NCBI GenBank assembly: GCA_964626665.1 | Contig: CAZVGK010000020.1 | Span: 1 to 58,133 of the forward strand | Length of the DNA stretch: 58,133 bases | Direction: 5' to 3' | From: an uncultured Gemmatimonadota bacterium | GTDB lineage: Bacteria; SM23-81; DAOVCL01 | Shown here: positions 26,298-35,245 of the stretch, piece by piece | Layout of the letters: every line of letters starts with the position of its first letter | How positions within the stretch are numbered: the first letter of the stretch is position 1 | Translations under genes and position numbers: made by a program | The notes under the pieces: model-generated | What the model was told of the DNA's origin: nothing | The model's database searches: none | Seen by the model: only the letters and a program-made list of their open reading frames with translations

Positions 26298-29036
26298 GTG
26301 AAATTAAAAAATGTAACTTTCGCTTTGGCTTTAGTTGCTTCACTGCTTTCCCTCATCTACACTAGGACTGCCCTTGCCCAGAAAGGTCCCAATGAAAATG
26401 CTACCTTTAGTATTGATTTTGACATATCCGCTGGGAATCAGGGGGAGGTTACTTACGACAGCGCACAAGTTGGGGATTGGGCGACTTTTGAGGTGAGAGT
26501 AGATGGGGTAGTGGAGTTGAAGCGATATAAGGTCAAGATAGAATTTGATACGGCCTTTGTGGAGTTAAATAAAGGCAATATCTTATTTGAGCATCCAGGT
26601 GTGGCTCCCAATCCTCCAATTGAGGTGAACATCCTGGAGAGCACAGGAGGTGAGGCACCAGCGCCCGGTGCAATTGACGACAGTTATGGCGCTGGAATTT
26701 ATGAGGCTGGATTTACCCTGGGCAATGTTGCTGACACTTTATCAGAGATGCCTCATGGTGAGGGGTTGCTGCTCTTCTGTTATCCCCAACTTAAGGGAAG
26801 CTTTACAGATAGCACGGCGACTGCTATTAAAATCTTGACGGCTGCCCTGGATGACAAAAACAATGTCAGGGATGGGTTTACCCTCAATCAATCCTACTGG
26901 ATTCTGGGTAAGAATGCTGTTCCTTCTGAGTTGGCCATCACTACTACCTCGTTATCCAGTGGAATAGTTGACTCAGCCTATTCTGACACTCTGAAAGCGG
27001 GCAACGGAACCCCCCCTTACATTTGGTCAATAGTTTCCGGAAGTTTGCCAAGTGGGTTGAGCCTGGAGGGCAGCACGGGGATAATTTCTGGGGTTCCCAC
27101 GGATACAGGCACTTCAGACTTTACCGTGATGGTCAAGGATGCTGTTCCCGATTCGGTCACCAAAGATTTGTCCATTACCATTATCGAATTGGCACCGGTA
27201 ATTGTCGTCACTCCCGATTCACTGGACTTTGACTCCGTCTATGTTGATTCAAGTGTATCTTTGGGGCTGATAGTCAAAAATGAAGGCACTGCCGATCTGA
27301 CTATTTCCGATATTCTCAGTGATAACTCCGTATTCACTACTGATTTCTCCGGGCCTGATACTTTGGCCCCAGATGATAGCCAGAGTGTTAATGTTACCTT
27401 TGCCCCAGATAGTGCCCAGGCTGAGATAGGCAATTTGACCATTAACAGCAACGCTGATACGGTGACAGTTTCCCTAACGGGGGTAGGAGTGCCCTGTGAA
27501 CCGGCAATTGTTGTTGCTCCAGGTTCGCTGGATTTTGACTCCATTTATGTTGATTCGAGTAAATCTCTACCCTTCATCATCACCAATGAGGGTTGTGCCG
27601 ATTTGGTAGTTTCCGATATTCTCAGTGATAACTCCGTATTCACCACTGATTTCTCCGGGCCTGATACTCTGGCCCCAGATGGGAGCCGGATCGTGAATGT
27701 TACCTTCACACCCGATATGGCCCAGGCCGAGACTGGAACCCTGACCATTTCCAACAATGACCATCAAGTTCTGGTGATACTTGCGGGAATCGGTTTGGCC
27801 ACAAGGCCTCAGATAAGGGTGGAGCCTGCCTCGCTTAACTTCGGGGAGGTAACTGTGGATAGCAGCTTCACCCAGCTCCTTACCATTTACAACGATGGTA
27901 ATGCCGACCTAGTGGTGGACAGCCTCACCTACCCCGAGGCATACTTGGGATCTGTTGATTCGGATACTATCTCCCCGGGGGAAAGCTTGGTTGATTCGGT
28001 CACCTTCACCCCTCCGGATACCTTTACTTATGAAGGACCGATAAGCATCTACAACAATGATGAGCTCAAGGCTGTGTATGTAAAAGGAACAGGTACTCCA
28101 GAACCAGTGCCCAAGATCGTGGTTGAGCCAACCTCTTTGGCCTTTGGTGATGTAGCGATAGGCAGTTCAGCGGATTTGACCTTCACAATCTCTAATGTCG
28201 GAAGTGCCACCTTAGTGGTAGATAGCATCATCACCCCCGATCCCTACACGGTGAGCGGTGTGACTACCCCGGATTCCATTGAACCCAACGACAGTGTGGT
28301 GGTGACTGTGACTTTCACTCCTTTGACTATGGGGGACTACGGAGGTCCAATCAAGATATTCAACAATGATGTAACAAAGATGGTTGATGTCTCAGGGCGG
28401 GGGGTAGTCTATGATGTTGGGGCGGAAGTCATCTCCTGTCCAGAGATTGTGTCCCGTGACCAGCCCGAGTCAGTCTTTGTCGATCTTATCAACTTCGGCA
28501 ATGTCACAGCGGGGGGGGTCAATGTTATCGGTACATTAATAAATGTAGATGCAGATACCTCAATTGGAGATACAACCTTGTCTGTTAGCCTGCCAGCAAG
28601 GGATACGCTGCACTTAGCGTTCGATCTGCCCTCTGACGATACGGCCTCTTACCACGTCAAGGCCCTTCTCTGCTTAATGTGGGCTGAGGATATGAACCCG
28701 GCGAACGATTGCGACTCATGCTCATACTTCTACAATGAGGTGCCGATTCGCCGGATGGGCCCGGAACTGCCTCAGGCATATTCTTTATCCCAGAACTATC
28801 CCAACCCCTTTAACCCCCTTACCCAGATCGAGTATTCCATCCCTCGTCCGGGCTGGGTGAGGCTTGAGGTATACAATATCTTAGGGGAGAAGGTGGCCAC
28901 CCTGGTGGACCGGGAGCAACAGCCCGGAAATTATAGGATTGGCTGGGATGCTAGGGACCTGAGAAGTGGGATTTATTTCTGCCGGATGCAGGCTGGTTCC
29001 TTCACCTTCACCCGCAGGATGGTCCTGCTTAAGTAG
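26298..29036 (+). CDS. Secreted protein: cohesin-like N-terminus, putative Ig (He_PIG) domain, four choice-of-anchor D/ASH-type Ig domains, T9SS-type CTD
   Basis: GTG start after AGGGGG; signal peptide; GTPPYIWSIVSGSLPSGLSL; four P.SL.F....V...N.G.ADL repeats; LSQNYPNPFNP...RRMVLLK. Confidence 0.8.
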   Translation: MKLKNVTFALALVASLLSLIYTRTALAQKGPNENATFSIDFDISAGNQGEVTYDSAQVGDWATFEVRVDGVVELKRYKVKIEFDTAFVELNKGNILFEHPGVAPNPPIEVNILESTGGEAPAPGAIDDSYGAGIYEAGFTLGNVADTLSEMPHGEGLLLFCYPQLKGSFTDSTATAIKILTAALDDKNNVRDGFTLNQSYWILGKNAVPSELAITTTSLSSGIVDSAYSDTLKAGNGTPPYIWSIVSGSLPSGLSLEGSTGIISGVPTDTGTSDFTVMVKDAVPDSVTKDLSITIIELAPVIVVTPDSLDFDSVYVDSSVSLGLIVKNEGTADLTISDILSDNSVFTTDFSGPDTLAPDDSQSVNVTFAPDSAQAEIGNLTINSNADTVTVSLTGVGVPCEPAIVVAPGSLDFDSIYVDSSKSLPFIITNEGCADLVVSDILSDNSVFTTDFSGPDTLAPDGSRIVNVTFTPDMAQAETGTLTISNNDHQVLVILAGIGLATRPQIRVEPASLNFGEVTVDSSFTQLLTIYNDGNADLVVDSLTYPEAYLGSVDSDTISPGESLVDSVTFTPPDTFTYEGPISIYNNDELKAVYVKGTGTPEPVPKIVVEPTSLAFGDVAIGSSADLTFTISNVGSATLVVDSIITPDPYTVSGVTTPDSIEPNDSVVVTVTFTPLTMGDYGGPIKIFNNDVTKMVDVSGRGVVYDVGAEVISCPEIVSRDQPESVFVDLINFGNVTAGGVNVIGTLINVDADTSIGDTTLSVSLPARDTLHLAFDLPSDDTASYHVKALLCLMWAEDMNPANDCDSCSYFYNEVPIRRMGPELPQAYSLSQNYPNPFNPLTQIEYSIPRPGWVRLEVYNILGEKVATLVDREQQPGNYRIGWDARDLRSGIYFCRMQAGSFTFTRRMVLLK

Positions 29037-29043
29037 AGCAATG

Positions 29044-29085
29044 GGGAAGGGGGGGGTCTTCTTCTCCCCCCTTCCCTCCTTGATT
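29044..29085 (+). terminator. Probable intrinsic terminator
   Basis: GGGAAGGGGGG...CCCCCCTTCCC stem just after the stop codon. Confidence 0.6.
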
Positions 29086-29660
29086 TAGGTTTTAACCTTC
29101 GATTTTTCAATCCTCAAGAGCTCTTTAACATTTCAGTGATAGTGCATCAGGTCTATCTTCGATTGACATCGGAAACTTCTGCGCGGTTTCCCGAAGCGGT
29201 AAATTTTCTCCCTGCTGTTTCGTCATAACTTGCAGTCGCCTCGATTCCATCAGAATGGCCTGGGTACTACCAACCGATTTTCACTCATCTGGTAGTTTAA
29301 TAATTCCGTAAAAATTTTGAATGACCAAGAATTACAGCTTCTGAGAACCTCGGTGTAACCAAAGGGAGCAGTGCTGTTTATCATAGTCTATTGCTTGGTT
29401 TACACAAGTTTATCGCTCCGTTGGTGAGATTTCTATTGCCAGTGTTGGGGAGATAAAGTGGGTGAGCCCCCTATGCTATAGAAATCTGACTCATCTCAAT
29501 TTAATCAAATTCGCCCCTAAAAGGATTTTCTGCCCTACCATTAACTATGTTATCCCCAAAATATCAAAAATATTATTGAAGGGTGTTGTTTTTGAGGCGC
29601 CAAAGGAAGGGTATTAAACTGTAATGGGGAAGAGTATCCCCTTAAAAAAGGAGGAAATCT

Positions 29661-29885
29661 ATGGAAGGGAAAGACCTAACGCAGATCAAAGGGGTAGGGA
29701 AGAAGACGGCGGAAAAACTCCAGGCAAGTGGATACGAGACTGTGGAGAAGATTGCCACGGCCAGGGAAGATGAACTGCGTAAAATAGGGTTGGCCCAGAA
29801 TGAGGTTAAGGGAATTATTACCTCCGCAAAGGGCCTTTATGGAGTTGCTAAGGAGAGGAAGGGAAGTTTCTGGAGTTTTGGATAA
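29661..29885 (+). CDS. Stand-alone helix-hairpin-helix protein (RadA N-terminal/NusA C-terminal-like HhH)
   Basis: DLTQIKGVGKKTAEKL..SGYETVEKIATA..DEL; strong RBS AAGGAGG. Confidence 0.85.
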   Translation: MEGKDLTQIKGVGKKTAEKLQASGYETVEKIATAREDELRKIGLAQNEVKGIITSAKGLYGVAKERKGSFWSFG

Positions 29886-29917
29886 ACAGTCAATTTTTGC
29901 CAAGGAGGTGATTCAAT

Positions 29918-30058
29918 TTGTACTCGCCCCCCCAGGAAGAGGGAACCGCAGGTAAGCATGAAGAGGTTCTAAAAGCCAAAGAAGCCACAGATATCAAGGG
30001 AAAATATAGGGTGATTTTGCAGTGTAGTTTTTCCCCTGAGATTGAGGAAGAGAGTTAA
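29918..30058 (+). CDS. 46-aa small protein absent from the ORF track; divergent relative of the two downstream small proteins
   Basis: AAGGAGGTGA RBS, TTG start. Translation MYSPPQEEGTAGKHEEVLKAKEATDIKGKYRVILQCSFSPEIEEES; GKYRVILQCSF resembles GEYRIVLQGTL. Confidence 0.65.
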   Translation: MYSPPQEEGTAGKHEEVLKAKEATDIKGKYRVILQCSFSPEIEEES

Positions 30059-30140
30059 TTTTGGGGGAAGGAGGCCGTGAGTGTTTCTGCTTGCTTCATT
30101 AAGTAGGATGAAGACATTACTTAGAGAGGAGGTGAGATAA

Positions 30141-30344
30141 ATGGCCAGGTTTAATGTGCACGACTTCGAGAACATAGAGAAGTCTCCGACTTCTCCTTAT
30201 TCCATAAGGAATAAGCTCAACTCAATGCTCAACTGCTCGACTTATGTGCGGGCTAAAGTCGATTCCGTTAATCCGGATACTGGGGAATACAGAATCGTCC
30301 TCCAGGGCACCCTGGAGAAGGAAGATACCAAGTGGGAGGAGTAG
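30141..30344 (+). CDS. Small hypothetical protein, paralog 1 (67 aa)
   Basis: GGAGGTGA RBS; 40 of 67 residues identical, ungapped, to the next ORF. Confidence 0.88.
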   Translation: MARFNVHDFENIEKSPTSPYSIRNKLNSMLNCSTYVRAKVDSVNPDTGEYRIVLQGTLEKEDTKWEE

Positions 30345-30412
30345 TAGAATAGGCAGAACCTCCCAATTGGCCTTCTTCCCTTTTTAAAATCAGTGGAAAG
30401 GAGGTGATAAGA

Positions 30413-30619
30413 ATGCCCAGGTTTCAGATGCATGATTTTAGGACAATGGAGAAATCCCCTACATCTCCGAAGACTCTCACCCATAAGGTTGGCCAGATGA
30501 TTGACTGTTCTACCGATGTCAAATGTTGGGCCGATTCCTACAACAAGGAGACCGGAGAATATCGGATTGTCCTCCAGGGAACCTTGGAGGCAGAGGATAC
30601 CAAGTGGGATTGGGGGTAG
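30413..30619 (+). CDS. Small hypothetical protein, paralog 2 (68 aa)
   Basis: AAGGAGGTGA RBS, ATG at 30413; shares HDF, EKSPTSP, CST, TGEYRIVLQGTLE.EDTKW. Confidence 0.88.
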   Translation: MPRFQMHDFRTMEKSPTSPKTLTHKVGQMIDCSTDVKCWADSYNKETGEYRIVLQGTLEAEDTKWDWG

Positions 30620-30642
30620 ATTAGACCTCAATTGAGGATAAT

Positions 30643-30675
30643 AGGGGGGCCTCTACTGGAGGCCCCCTTTTGTTT
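30643..30675 (+). terminator. Intrinsic terminator closing the small-protein operon
   Basis: GGGGGCCTC-TACTG-GAGGCCCCC followed by TTTTGTTT. Confidence 0.8.
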
Positions 30676-30824
30676 AGAGTGATACTTTTATGCAGAATTT
30701 TGCATACTGCCGGGGTAAGATTTTATGTGGACCACCAAAGAAGGTTGGGAAAGTACCACATCAAACCTTTATTTTTCGGGAAGGTAGGGGATCTTGCTCC
30801 GATTGTTTCTGTTGGATTTTCACT

Positions 30825-30840
30825 TGGCATAATCTTTGCA
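30825..30840 (+). promoter_or_regulatory. Sigma54-type -24/-12 promoter
   Basis: TGGCATAATCTTTGCA with exact GG-N10-GC spacing. Confidence 0.55.
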
Positions 30841-31164
30841 ATTTTGAGCGATAGATTGGTAAGACTACATTTCGGAAATGCTAACTTGACAGTATAGGAA
30901 ATTCCATTTTTAGACGGGGTTGACAGGATGATCAGGACAAATAAAACCCGTCCACCAATGTTACATCTAAGCGAGTTAGTGGGTGGGAGACATCCCCTGA
31001 TGTCGATCAAAAGGGTGTTGTCAGGAGTTACCTCTTCCGCCTGGAATCCCGTCGGAACGGGGCTGACAGCTCTTACAATCTTTAATAGAGGGGATGAATA
31101 AAAATCCGGTAAATCCTGTTATCCTGTCAAAAAAGCCCCTGTAGGCGGCTCAGTTCGAAACGAG

Positions 31165-31791
31165 GTGCAGATGAAGATAATAGAGATTGAGTGGGGGGAA
31201 TTTCCCCAGGTGGATCATTTGAACCCCAAATTCATACCGGGCTCAACAAGGTTGAAGGCTACCTTGGAAATTTCCTTCAATGATTTGGAGAGGGGAGAAC
31301 TTAAGAACCACATTCAGGAGCTTACTCAGCTTTTCCCCAGTTTTAGTAAGCATCGCTGCGCTAATGAGCATGGGTTATCCACATCTTTTCAACCCAAACC
31401 TGGCTTGCAGCAGGTGGATAAAGCCACAGATGTTGCTCATCTCATTGAGCATATGGTTATTGATCTACAGTGTTCATTGAGTCGGATGAGATCTTGCAGT
31501 GGTATCACCTGTGCTTATTGGAGTCCGGAGAATCGCTATGACCTCTTTGTGGAATGTGCCAGCCCCAAGGTAGGCATCTTTGCCCTGAGGTTTGCCAAGG
31601 AGATAGTTGAGGAAATCTTAGCAGAAGATAAGTTTGGCCCTAAGTATAAGAAAATTTTGCAATTAGCCAGGTTTATCCAAAAGAACACTCCAATTTCTAA
31701 TGATGTAGGAGAACTATCATCTTCCCTAAGGTGGAAGGATAGGGCAGTTAAATCCTATCTAAAAGAACTGATTCGTTTGGGATACCTATGA
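31165..31791 (+). CDS. Stand-alone cyanophycin synthetase N-domain-like protein (HxC...HxxEH) with possible C-terminal winged helix
   Basis: LFPSFSKHRC...ATDVAHLIEHMVIDLQ...SGIT parallels CphA LP.L.EH.C...GT..GH..EH.ALELQ...G.T; C-terminal ELSSSL.W....VKSYLKELIRLGYL. Start may be ATG 31171. Confidence 0.65.
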   Translation: MQMKIIEIEWGEFPQVDHLNPKFIPGSTRLKATLEISFNDLERGELKNHIQELTQLFPSFSKHRCANEHGLSTSFQPKPGLQQVDKATDVAHLIEHMVIDLQCSLSRMRSCSGITCAYWSPENRYDLFVECASPKVGIFALRFAKEIVEEILAEDKFGPKYKKILQLARFIQKNTPISNDVGELSSSLRWKDRAVKSYLKELIRLGYL

Positions 31792-32035
31792 CCTCATACG
31801 CTTTTGCCCTCCAAATTCCTAATGACTCCGTAAGCTTGGCTTTACAAATCAAGGGATGGCAGTAAGGGCATTTCTGGCGGGATTTTTTCGTAGGGAGAGC
31901 TACCTTTTTCGTAGCTCTCCCTTTTTTTTGTATGGTCTGAGGATTTGCTACCTTGAGAAAGGCATCGATTTCAGAATCAAAGGCTACATAGGCATAGTCT
32001 TTAGGTTGTCTAATTGGTTCTCTCTGTGAAGCCAT
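31748..32035 (-). CDS. Possible small basic hypothetical protein with CPYC motif
   Basis: ATG preceded by GGGGA, fills an otherwise empty gap, overlaps the convergent gene by 44 nt; no family recognised. Confidence 0.3.
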   Translation of the reverse strand: MASQREPIRQPKDYAYVAFDSEIDAFLKVANPQTIQKKGRATKKVALPTKKSRQKCPYCHPLICKAKLTESLGIWRAKAYEVIGIPNESVLLDRI

Positions 32036-32145
32036 CTATCCCAAGGTAAACTGAGTGAGAGTCCCTCGGTTTAATTCCTGTTCCCATAATTTTAGGTACC
32101 CTCCGAAGAAGATTAGTAAAAGTAGTAATTTTATGGAGCCATCAG

Positions 32146-32220
32146 CCCCCCCCCCCCCAAAAAAAAAATAAAAAAAAAATAAAAAAACCCCTTGACAGGT
32201 TAAGAACAAGGTATTAGTAT
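32146..32220 (+). promoter_or_regulatory. Sigma70 promoter of the TBDR operon with C13 run and phased A tracts
   Basis: C13-A10-T-A10-T-A7-C4, then TTGACA (32192)-17 bp-TAGTAT (32215). Confidence 0.7.
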
Positions 32221-32281
32221 TGTTTGTTCAAGGGAATTTTTTGAAGATTAAAGGAAAATCCTTTAGAAGGGAGGGATAAAA

Positions 32282-35245
32282 ATGAGGTCAAAATGGTTAG
32301 TTTTTTGGGCAGGTGTTCTTATCCTTTTTCTTTTCGCCACTTCTCTCTGGGCCGGCACAACGGGCAAGATAAAGGGGACGGTGAAGGATAAGGACACCGG
32401 TGCCCCATTACCCGGGGTGAATATTGTGATCAAAGGGACGACTATGGGAGCAGCCACTAACTTGAGGGGTGAATATTTCATCATCAATGTCCGGGCAGGC
32501 ACCTATACTTTAGTAGCTACAATGGTGGGGTATAAAGCAATAGAGGTAGCCAATGTGAAGGTATCGGCCGATCTAACCACTACCATGGATTTTGAGCTTG
32601 AACCTACTGTGCTAGAATTGGGGGAGGTAGTAGAGGTGATCTCCGAGCGTCCTATGATTCAGAGAGATGTTACCTCTACTAGCCGGTTAATAGGCAGTGA
32701 AGACATTGCTCAGATGCCCATTACGGATTTTGCCGATATAGTGGCCAATCAAGCGGGAGCAGTGGAGACAGGTGGGGATTACTCTGGAGGACTGCATATC
32801 AGGGGAGGACGTTCGGATGAAGTGGTTTATATTGTAGATGGGGTGAACACTAATGATCCAGTAGTTAACCGCCGAGGCATAACCTTAGATAAGAGCGCTA
32901 TTGAGGAGATGTCGGTAATCAGCGGAGGCTTTAATGCGGAATACGGAGAAGCTATGTCCGGTGTGGTCAATGTAGTGACGAAGGAAGGCAGAAAGGACTT
33001 TAGTGGGGGATTGGAATTGACCACGGATTATCCTTTCCAGGACAGCAGGTATGATTTTGGTTACAATAAAGCCAACTTAACAATAGGGGGCCCAATCCCC
33101 TTAGGTAAGAATCTGACTTACTTCCTGCAAGGTGCCTATTACGAGGCTGATGACAGAGATCCGGCCATTATTCGCAAAAGCCATAATGACATCAAGGAGC
33201 AGAGTACTGCGGGGAAGTTAGTGTGGAAGCCCATTAAACCACTTAAGGTTAGACTATCGGGGAACTGGGCTAAACAGGAATATCACACCTACAGCCATAG
33301 CAGATCTCGCGGTGACTGGGTAAACCAAGGTTACTTGGCAAAAAAGGGTAACTCTCAATTTGTTTTTAACCTTACCCATACCCTCAGCAGGAGGACATTT
33401 TATACCTTTAACCTGAGTGGGTTTAACACCTACACCAAGTACAGTGCACAGAATGGAAGGCATTATCATGACTTCAGGGCGATAGGTCCACGGCTTGCCT
33501 GGGTAGGTGCGGCCATAGATTCCGGGTGGTATGATCAGGAATGGGATAGGTGGGAGCCAGGCTTTGATCCAGATAGCGTTTGGTTGTGGTATTATACGCA
33601 AGAAGGTTGGTATCATCCCGCTACTGATACAGCGGAGGCCCATTGGGAGAGTATTATCCAGAAGCAGGAGGCTTACAATGACCACTGGTATGATACGGGG
33701 TGTTGGCATCTTAATGAGGATACCACAAACATTTATTATGAACCCTTCGACCTCGATGGATACCTCTGGGAAGTGGCCAATTCCCCTAAACATCAAAGCG
33801 ATAAATATGAGGGGGATATTGATAAATGGGCGTATCCCTATCCAAGAGATGAATTTAGCTACTTCGTCTACAATTTCTTCCCCAGGTGGCATGAGAGAAT
33901 TACCACCCACTACACGGCCAATTTCGACCTCACCAGCCAAGTAGACAAATATAACCAGGTTAAAGGAGGCTTGTATCTGCGGAAGAACTTTTTAGAGTAT
34001 ACGGATATCCAGTTCTCCAACGACAGGCCCTATTCTGACCACTATGAGCAGACGCCAATTAGCGCAGCAGTCTATCTGCAGGATAAGTTAGAATATGAGG
34101 ATATGACCATTAACGCAGGGGTTAGGGTTGACTACTTTGACCCTAAAGCTAAGCACCCCATCGACCTGGAGAATCTTGATCAAGGTATGGCCGAGACCGA
34201 CCCCAAGTATAAGGTGAGCCCGAGGTTCGGCGTTGCCTTTGCCGTCTCCGACAAGACGGTGATGTATGGTAACTACGGACGTTTTTTTCAGGTTATTCAA
34301 TTGGGTGAACTCTATATGAACCTGCAGACTGATCTACTCACCGGCTGGCCACTGGTGGGGAATCCCGATATACCACCTGAGGAGACGGTTGCTTATGAGG
34401 TTGGTCTTAAGCATGCCTTTACCCCTGACCTGGCTGGACAGGTGACGGCCTATTATAAGGATGTCCATAACCTTCTGGCTACCCGCGAGGTGAACACTCT
34501 TGTTGCGGGGAAGAGAGCCTCCTACACCATTTTTAAGGTTGAGGACTTCGCCACGGTGAAAGGTATAGACTTGACCCTTACCAAAAGGGCTTCCCGCTAT
34601 CTTTCCAGCTCGGTCGGCTACTCCTATCTGAATGCCAAGGGGTCTGGTTCCTCAGGTAGAGAGGCCTACTATATCTATATTTATACAGGATTTCCTGATG
34701 AACTCCCCAAACAGGAGTATCCTCTTGATTTTGATGTTACACATTCTCTTAAGGCTAATCTTAACCTCTATTTGCCACGGCGATATGGGCCTAAGCTCTT
34801 TGGTTTTCGGCCCCTTTCGGACCTCAACGCCAACCTCCTGTTTACCTTTTCCTCCGGCCCTCCATATACACCCGAGGCTACCAAAGGGGGGCAGCCTTTG
34901 GAGATGGGTTCCAAGAGGCTTCCTTCCACTCATCGCACTGATTTGCGTGTTGACAAGATGTTTTCTATCAGCAAGGATCTGGGTATAGGGTTCTTTGTGG
35001 ATGTGAGAAACCTCTTTGATGTTGAAAATGTGATTAATGTTTACCATAATACGGGCAAACCGGATGATGATGACAGTGCTCCCATTTGGGATCCATCTCA
35101 GTGGGGAAATTATGCGGAGGAGGGATACAGTAGTCGGCACGAAATGTATGAGGCAGCTTATGCGGATTGGTATAAGTATACTAAAAGTCCCTTTAATTAT
35201 GGTGCTCCTCGTCTGATCAAAGCAGGAGTGACCTTCCACTTCTAA
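32282..35245 (+). CDS. TonB-dependent receptor with N-terminal carboxypeptidase-regulatory-like domain
   Basis: AGTTGKIKGTVKDKDTGAPLPGVN, plug HIRGGRSDEV.YIVDG, SGGFNAEYG.AMSGVVN, NLFD..N, C-terminal PRLIKAGVTFHF. Confidence 0.93.
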   Translation: MRSKWLVFWAGVLILFLFATSLWAGTTGKIKGTVKDKDTGAPLPGVNIVIKGTTMGAATNLRGEYFIINVRAGTYTLVATMVGYKAIEVANVKVSADLTTTMDFELEPTVLELGEVVEVISERPMIQRDVTSTSRLIGSEDIAQMPITDFADIVANQAGAVETGGDYSGGLHIRGGRSDEVVYIVDGVNTNDPVVNRRGITLDKSAIEEMSVISGGFNAEYGEAMSGVVNVVTKEGRKDFSGGLELTTDYPFQDSRYDFGYNKANLTIGGPIPLGKNLTYFLQGAYYEADDRDPAIIRKSHNDIKEQSTAGKLVWKPIKPLKVRLSGNWAKQEYHTYSHSRSRGDWVNQGYLAKKGNSQFVFNLTHTLSRRTFYTFNLSGFNTYTKYSAQNGRHYHDFRAIGPRLAWVGAAIDSGWYDQEWDRWEPGFDPDSVWLWYYTQEGWYHPATDTAEAHWESIIQKQEAYNDHWYDTGCWHLNEDTTNIYYEPFDLDGYLWEVANSPKHQSDKYEGDIDKWAYPYPRDEFSYFVYNFFPRWHERITTHYTANFDLTSQVDKYNQVKGGLYLRKNFLEYTDIQFSNDRPYSDHYEQTPISAAVYLQDKLEYEDMTINAGVRVDYFDPKAKHPIDLENLDQGMAETDPKYKVSPRFGVAFAVSDKTVMYGNYGRFFQVIQLGELYMNLQTDLLTGWPLVGNPDIPPEETVAYEVGLKHAFTPDLAGQVTAYYKDVHNLLATREVNTLVAGKRASYTIFKVEDFATVKGIDLTLTKRASRYLSSSVGYSYLNAKGSGSSGREAYYIYIYTGFPDELPKQEYPLDFDVTHSLKANLNLYLPRRYGPKLFGFRPLSDLNANLLFTFSSGPPYTPEATKGGQPLEMGSKRLPSTHRTDLRVDKMFSISKDLGIGFFVDVRNLFDVENVINVYHNTGKPDDDDSAPIWDPSQWGNYAEEGYSSRHEMYEAAYADWYKYTKSPFNYGAPRLIKAGVTFHF

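Follow-up and report, generated by a model that had tools for sequence, protein, structure and literature searches.

The DNA analysed here is a contig of 58,133 nucleotides (CAZVGK010000020.1, positions 1 to 58,133; hereafter "the window") from an uncultured Gemmatimonadota bacterium (assembly GCA_964626665.1; GTDB lineage Bacteria; SM23-81; DAOVCL01), whose genome totals 3.17 Mb and is 99.65% complete. It carries a run of four small co-oriented genes closed by an intrinsic-terminator-like hairpin and followed, after a gap of 550 nt, by a gene encoding a stand-alone putative zinc peptidase that resembles the N-terminal domain (N domain) of the cyanophycin synthetase CphA1 (Table 1). An earlier note, made from the sequence alone, had proposed that all these genes form one undescribed system. 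As judged from gene neighbourhoods in other genomes, the conserved core is narrower, a compact operon-like unit composed of two paralogous small proteins (A and B) and the peptidase-like protein. The four small genes and the hairpin were all found where the earlier note had placed them.

Table 1. Genes and other features of the locus, in coordinates of the window.
Feature	Position	Strand	Description
HhH gene	29661..29885	+	74 aa; genus-specific neighbour, outside the conserved core
46-aa ORF	29918..30058	+	TTG start; variable acidic N-terminal part, conserved GKYR(V/I)(I/V)(L/F)(Q/R)C(S/G)FS C-terminal part
Small protein A	30141..30344	+	67 aa; unannotated family
Small protein B	30413..30619	+	68 aa from ATG 30413 (ORF listed 30404/30413); paralogue of A
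Intrinsic-terminator-like hairpin	30643..30669	+	12-pair stem, 8 G-C, then TTTTGTTT; closes the four-gene run
Sigma-54-type -24/-12 box	30825..30840	+	TGGCAT-N5-TTGCA; TGGCATAATCTTTGCA
MITE-like repeat	~30882..31158		~275 bp; approximate boundaries; inverted-repeat ends TTGACAGGAT... and ...ATCCTGTCAA
Peptidase-like gene	31171..31791	+	206 aa; stand-alone CphA1-N-domain-like putative zinc peptidase; ATG start
Terminator-like hairpin 3' of the peptidase-like gene	31892..31922	+	12-pair stem, 7 G-C, then TTTTTTTG
aa, amino acids; HhH, helix-hairpin-helix; MITE, miniature inverted-repeat transposable element; ORF, open reading frame.

The peptidase-like protein matches the Pfam family of the CphA1 N domain (PF18921) over residues 38-152, with 43.2 bits for a cut-off of 27 (E-value 4.4e-11), and it is the sole such match in the genome. 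When a profile of 43 homologues was searched against the PDB, the only significant matches were CphA1 chains (7wac, 1.5e-6; 7lg5, 1.3e-4). The alignment to CphA1 places H-x-C on H-x-C and HLIEH on HVIEH, with H61, C63, H90, E93 and H94 corresponding to Synechocystis H57, C59, H79, E82 and H83. The predicted structure (AlphaFold2, AF2; predicted local distance difference test, pLDDT, 88) has the fold of the CphA1 N domain: the top ten Foldseek matches are all CphA1 chains, the best with a probability of 1.00 and a query TM-score (TMq) of 0.58. Sharon et al. (2022; PMC9262961) show that these five Synechocystis residues make up a hidden Cx19HxxEH zinc peptidase site, by which cyanophycin is cut into primers, and regard the domain as a distant, much smaller relative of the M16 inverzincins with an unusual C-H-H triad.

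This site is kept in the stand-alone proteins of the module, which are ~205-250 residues long. The five residues are invariant in 43 stand-alone sequences, and H-x-C...HxxEH is found in 62 of 63 sequences, with a spacer of 20-32 residues (26 here) between the cysteine and the first histidine; the single sequence without the motif looks frameshifted. The "metal-dependent processing enzyme" of the earlier note fits both this intact motif and the zinc peptidase site of CphA1 (PMC9262961). S110, T113, P119, R122 and D124 are also invariant, and C114 nearly so; that paper describes no counterpart to them. In one Acidobacteriota locus (L061, 6329-7039), the profile match lies in two pieces, with one frame devoid of the H-x-C part, probably by frameshift or assembly error.

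Past the CphA1-like region, residues 158-202 are modelled as three helices. Conservation is lowest in this C-terminal tail, where only L200 is nearly invariant. The tail is predicted to be a three-helix, winged-helix-like domain, with weak matches to MarR/TFE-type proteins (E-values 0.23-0.7, PDB profile search), HTH_36 (0.072) and Sul12a (0.15). The protein ends at 206 residues and carries no fused ATP-grasp or Mur-ligase domain. Its score against the cyanophycin synthetase model TIGR02068 is 45.6 bits, and no cyanophycin synthetase is found in the host genome, in which the best TIGR02068 match reaches 133.6 bits for a cut-off of 850. Neither Peptidase_M16 nor M16_C is among the Pfam matches of the protein at E<=1. 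A word-indexed search, which is weak evidence on this point, returned no longer fused relatives. Regarding its start, the gene is present as the earlier note had it, but the 208-residue product read from GTG 31165 is less likely than the one read from the ATG 6 nt downstream, because homologues start at the ATG position.

Small proteins A and B share 60% identity, and a search within their own genome matches B to A at an E-value of 1.5e-23. B scores 98.7 bits against the family profile. The layout of A comprises two helices, a long β-hairpin ending in TGEYRIVLQGTL and an acidic tail. Conservation extends over the whole length of the small proteins, which are modelled as a folded domain. A and B have no match in Pfam, NCBIfam, PADLOC or PHROGs; among 69 family members searched against Pfam, no family matched more than four, and the ESM Atlas gave no usable match for A. 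Neither the small proteins nor the peptidase-like protein was matched in 72,556 plasmid and 50,697 phage records. The family is nevertheless sizeable, with 138 representatives at E<=1e-3 in a full profile scan, and 82 species genomes and 223 metagenome contigs reached by pattern scans. A word-indexed search for A yielded just 8 clusters, a strong underestimate compared to these scans.

Loci harbor one to four copies of the small-protein gene, usually two, each encoding ~65 residues. In the family tree, first and second copies fall in separate clades within each lineage, and the pair is therefore old and retained. Among the 138 family hits, three are tandem two-domain chains of 114-183 residues (P0071, P0084 and P0134); such fusions are a classic sign that the two units work together. 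A very long protein of 7432 residues (P0044) contains 34 stretches matching only the hairpin-turn part of the profile (positions 43-61), which are probably a recurring β-hairpin motif rather than homologous domains.

The genomic association of the two families was examined in 160 loci fetched around small-protein genes, 80 of which come from species genomes. By tblastn, the peptidase-like gene is present in 116 of the 160. In the 80 genome loci, profile searches place it within 5 kb and always on the same strand in 62, distributed over several phyla. It lies 3' of the small genes in Eisenbacteria, Acidobacteriota and the present genus, 5' of them in Zixibacteria, and is never divergent. A scan for related loci starting from the peptidase-like protein, made with an 11-sequence alignment, gave the converse view: a small-protein gene adjoins 43 of 58 full-length loci and, of the 15 without one, three lie at the end of a contig. 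In a sample of 121 genomes of the Zixibacteria phylum, the small protein occurs in 27, the full-length partner in 29 and both in 26, with the genes side by side on one contig in 24 of these 26. The link across the terminator, which the earlier note had regarded as unproven, is thus borne out by adjacency and co-orientation in 62 of 80 loci and by the HxxEH protein carried by 26 of 27 small-protein genomes. The pairing is real: it is found in several phyla of uncultivated bacteria and has persisted even where the order of the genes has changed. No further gene cluster is common to more than 14 of the 80 loci, and their 143 nearest-neighbour ORFs belong to heterogeneous Pfam families.

The presence of the partner is also reflected in the small proteins themselves. 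Of 123 small proteins linked to a partner, 93 have the motif P[TSAV]SP between their two helices; it is absent from all 20 partner-less ones. The C-terminal tail spans 10-12 residues and is acidic/aromatic in the partner-linked proteins, versus ~7 residues in the partner-less ones, which form a separate deep clade (support 98/94).

The two families differ in their translation signals. GGAGG stands 5' of each of the four small ORFs, with the longer GGAGGTGA at the 46-aa ORF, A and B. The "very strong ribosome-binding sites" of the earlier note are therefore in place, but GGAGG is not special to them: it precedes 12 of 33 long ORFs in the window, where strong Shine-Dalgarno sites are common. What sets the small-protein genes apart is the extent of the match across loci, since a Shine-Dalgarno match of at least 6 nt is found in 101 of 141 small-protein genes versus one of 57 partner genes and three of 53 large neighbouring genes. 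This asymmetry agrees with the abundant expression that had been proposed for them, and suggests that the small proteins are probably produced in large excess. Such an excess fits a substrate and its enzyme better than the members of a stoichiometric complex.

Between the two families, the hairpin closing the four-gene run and the sigma-54-type box are both conserved in the sister species. Within the window, TGGCAY-N5-TTGCW is matched by this box alone (TGGCATAATCTTTGCA), for 0.11 matches expected; at least one match was obtained in 10 of 100 shuffles. The host genome possesses an rpoN (sigma-54) gene. In the sister species L010, the box reads TGGCAC-N5-TTGCG and ends 35 nt before the gene, amid diverged flanking sequence. 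The earlier note was correct in seeing such a box ahead of the HxxEH gene, but here it stands ~330 nt away, because the ~275-bp repeat sits between the two. Of the 49 matches to this repeat in the genome, the four best are 92-93% identical to it. The repeat was aligned with three other copies and is not found at the corresponding place in the sister species. We considered whether a sigma-54 promoter might be typical of the module in general, and rejected this: any box occurs in just three of the 80 loci, and is convincing only in the sister species.

The remaining two genes of the run are outside the conserved core, as far as gene order indicates, since their linkage is confined to the genus. 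The 74-residue protein belongs to the Pfam family HHH_5 (1.2e-9; 38.9 bits for a cut-off of 27), its best NCBIfam match being the N-terminal region of RadA, far under the cut-off. Its gene adjoins the module in seven of the 160 loci by tblastn, and accounts for one of the 143 nearest-neighbour ORFs by Pfam; the 46-aa ORF is near the module in three of the 160. The two genes lie next to each other in each of the three species searched in this genus (L010, 5480-5915; L252, 238-672). The nucleic-acid-binding partner that the earlier note saw in the HhH protein is thus not upheld: the small proteins and the HxxEH protein do co-occur in other genomes, but the HhH gene accompanies them only in near relatives.

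The 46-aa ORF keeps an open frame and its motif in two sister species (L010, 5781-5915; L252, 238-363), with diverged N-terminal halves, and is therefore a real small gene. Its conserved C-terminal end reads GKYRIVF.CGFS in the sister species. Across the 46-aa ORF, A and B, GKYRVILQCS occurs once and GEYRIVLQGT twice, with an acidic tail after each. In this sense, the three small proteins announced in the earlier note do share a motif, but paralogy can be demonstrated for A and B only: the 46-aa ORF has only the GKYRVILQC stretch in common with them, and is the best sub-threshold match to the family profile in the window (E-value 0.29). It has no Pfam or NCBIfam match, and may be a degenerate relative of the family. 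The contig of the third species (G001) stops 237 nt past the small ORF, and no gene for small protein A was found there.

Other neighbours vary with the lineage. The nearest upstream gene encodes a RarA/MgsA-type AAA+ ATPase in eight Zixibacteria-type loci (L050, L053, L059, L063, L064, L066, L067 and L068) and an MrfA-like DEAD/MZB helicase in four Acidobacteriota loci (L025, L033, L035 and L037). Together with the HhH protein, these are three different DNA-transaction neighbours in three lineages; they give a hint of a nucleic-acid-related role, and could be plain synteny. In the window, a 95-aa ORF on the reverse strand (31748-32035), a putative gene, shares 44 nt with the 3' end of the peptidase-like gene and spans the forward-strand hairpin that follows it. 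An Rfam search over positions 28900-32400 gave nothing credible, the best match (E-value 0.042) being an unrelated eukaryotic family. The sequencing runs listed for the stretch number 24, all of DNA, and 22 of them are salt-marsh metagenomes.

The reading that we favour, with a probability of roughly 40%, is that a dedicated zinc peptidase, itself of low abundance, acts on an abundant, hetero-oligomeric pair of small proteins, either processing them or turning them over. It is preferred because of the Shine-Dalgarno asymmetry, the retained and sometimes fused copies, and the way in which the PTSP motif and the tail track the partner. The small proteins would be made in large amounts and assemble as hetero-oligomers via their long β-hairpins. 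The scarce peptidase would bind them, possibly aided by its three-helix tail, and cleave them, leading to their maturation or removal; the cut would likely fall in the E(K/R)xPTSP loop or in the acidic/aromatic C-terminal tail. A sigma-54-type promoter of its own would drive the peptidase gene in this genus, making cleavage signal-dependent. That the predicted peptidase binds and cleaves the small proteins is what we infer from these features.

Several observations weigh against this processing or turnover reading. Related genomes are not independent, and the counts given above therefore overstate the support. In 18 of the 80 loci (KSB1, Calditrichota, Zhuqueibacterota and others), the small protein, as a single or double gene, has no partner, and four of five genomes of such loci have no partner anywhere; the small protein therefore has a function independent of the enzyme. 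Conversely, out of five genomes with a partner and no adjacent small gene, three carry the small gene elsewhere and two have none, and the sample of 121 genomes includes three cases of a full-length partner without the small protein. In the window itself, a terminator and a separate promoter-type box stand between the two families, and a repeat is inserted before the peptidase gene. The correlation between PTSP and the partner rests on essentially one deep split of the tree. Lastly, the substrate of the CphA1 N domain is an isopeptide-decorated polymer and not a folded protein, and its cleavage is slow (PMC9262961).

Some of these observations suit a different relation, in which the enzyme acts on another substrate (a peptide, a poly-amino-acid polymer or a small molecule) and the small proteins are co-regulated stress or structural proteins with an indirect link to it. 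Each family does occur without the other in some genomes, and in this genus each has transcription signals of its own. LuxS, in which an HxxEH-plus-Cys metal site serves a non-peptidase reaction, is among the weak Foldseek matches of the model (probability 0.15-0.18), as is pitrilysin (0.12). However, adjacency holds through gene-order change across phyla, nearly all small-protein genomes of the 121-genome sample (26 of 27) also carry the enzyme, and one sequence feature of the small proteins goes together with it. Nor does the genome encode a cyanophycin synthetase that could make a polymer for it. We consider another substrate unlikely.

A second alternative turns on the tail of the peptidase-like protein, which could be a one-component regulator: its CphA-N-like domain would sense a metal or small ligand, and its winged-helix tail would bind DNA and control the small-protein genes. 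The last 50-60 residues are modelled as three helices, and the matches to TFE, zinc-responsive AdcR and MJ223, as well as those to HTH_36 and Sul12a, are individually insignificant and consistent with one another; moreover, genes of such regulators often adjoin their targets. Against this, the general base E93 is invariant along with the metal ligands, although metal sensing alone would not need it, the tail is the very part that is least conserved, and the gene is always co-oriented with the small-protein genes, before or after them, and never divergent. A regulator of this kind is thus improbable.

A signal-triggered protease-substrate switch, sigma-54-dependent in this genus, has also been considered. 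Here, a dedicated minimal inverzincin would cleave an abundant cytoplasmic hetero-oligomer of the two paralogues, releasing or destroying an activity needed under stress; we hold this to be quite doubtful. It would be just as doubtful that, as part of such a switch, the small proteins have a fold without known relative and the enzyme is a free-living ancestor or offshoot of the CphA1 N domain. Least probable is a system of ribosomally synthesised and post-translationally modified peptides (RiPPs), with the small proteins as precursors, the CphA-N-like protein as leader peptidase and its helical tail as recognition element: the paralogous, tandem genes, one to four beside a peptidase with a helix-turn-helix (HTH)-like domain, recall such pathways, some of which are served by M16-type HxxEH peptidases, but no conserved tailoring enzyme or transporter is found among the 143 nearest-neighbour ORFs of the 80 loci, which do not form a RiPP cluster, the small proteins are modelled as a folded domain and conserved from end to end, with just the 7-12-residue tail as most variable part, and the tail of the enzyme lacks the β-sheet contained in PqqD-type recognition elements.

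Literature searches on PF18921, on stand-alone cyanophycin N-terminal domains and on HxxEH metallopeptidases with small proteins found no description of the module. It is real, conserved and undescribed. Its enzyme, whose function here we infer, is a novel free-standing form of a peptidase domain that came to notice just recently. It was in 2022 that the peptidase site of the CphA1 N domain was first recognised, and then solely within that large enzyme. If the favoured processing or turnover reading is true, the minimal C-H-H zinc peptidase fold would have an independent biological role with a different substrate, the basis for this being a free-standing protein that keeps all catalytic residues, in the absence of cyanophycin synthetase, and has a faithful small-protein partner. 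The ribosome-binding sites further suggest that the small-protein genes are among the more strongly translated ones in Zixibacteria, Eisenbacteria, Acidobacteriota and related uncultivated groups. The hypothesis would be cheap to test, the two proteins being small and easily expressed.

Among known systems, the ImmA/IrrE-type metalloprotease regulators, which cleave a small partner protein, offer a functional analogy only: they too are small metalloproteases with an HTH-like element beside a small partner. They are, however, HExxH proteins without sequence relation to the present family, and their partners are HTH repressors, unlike the small proteins described here. With the M16 inverzincins, such as pitrilysin and insulin-degrading enzyme, the peptidase-like protein has in common an HxxEH motif on an active-site helix beside a β-sheet. 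In contrast, it is far smaller, has no M16 Pfam match, and its candidate third ligand is an upstream cysteine instead of a downstream glutamate. The gut Eggerthellaceae and relatives (L231-L242) harbor a second kind of stand-alone CphA-N-like form, exemplified by a protein of 124 residues (L236, 3914-4288). This minimal protein is likewise free-standing, with an HKC-x18-HLLEH motif, but it covers only positions 30-110 of the profile and has neither the helical tail nor a nearby small-protein gene. The closest likeness is to the CphA1 N domain itself (PF18921; PDB ID: 7lg5, 7txv, 7wac), with a Pfam score above the cut-off, the best sequence and fold matches in the PDB, and an H-x-C plus HxxEH arrangement that aligns with its metal ligands and catalytic glutamate (PMC9262961). 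Unlike CphA1, the peptidase-like protein stands alone, with ~206 residues and neither the ATP-grasp nor the Mur-ligase domain. Its family also departs from the CphA1 N domain by a spacer of 20-32 residues (versus 19), a three-helix tail, extra invariant residues and the link to the small proteins.

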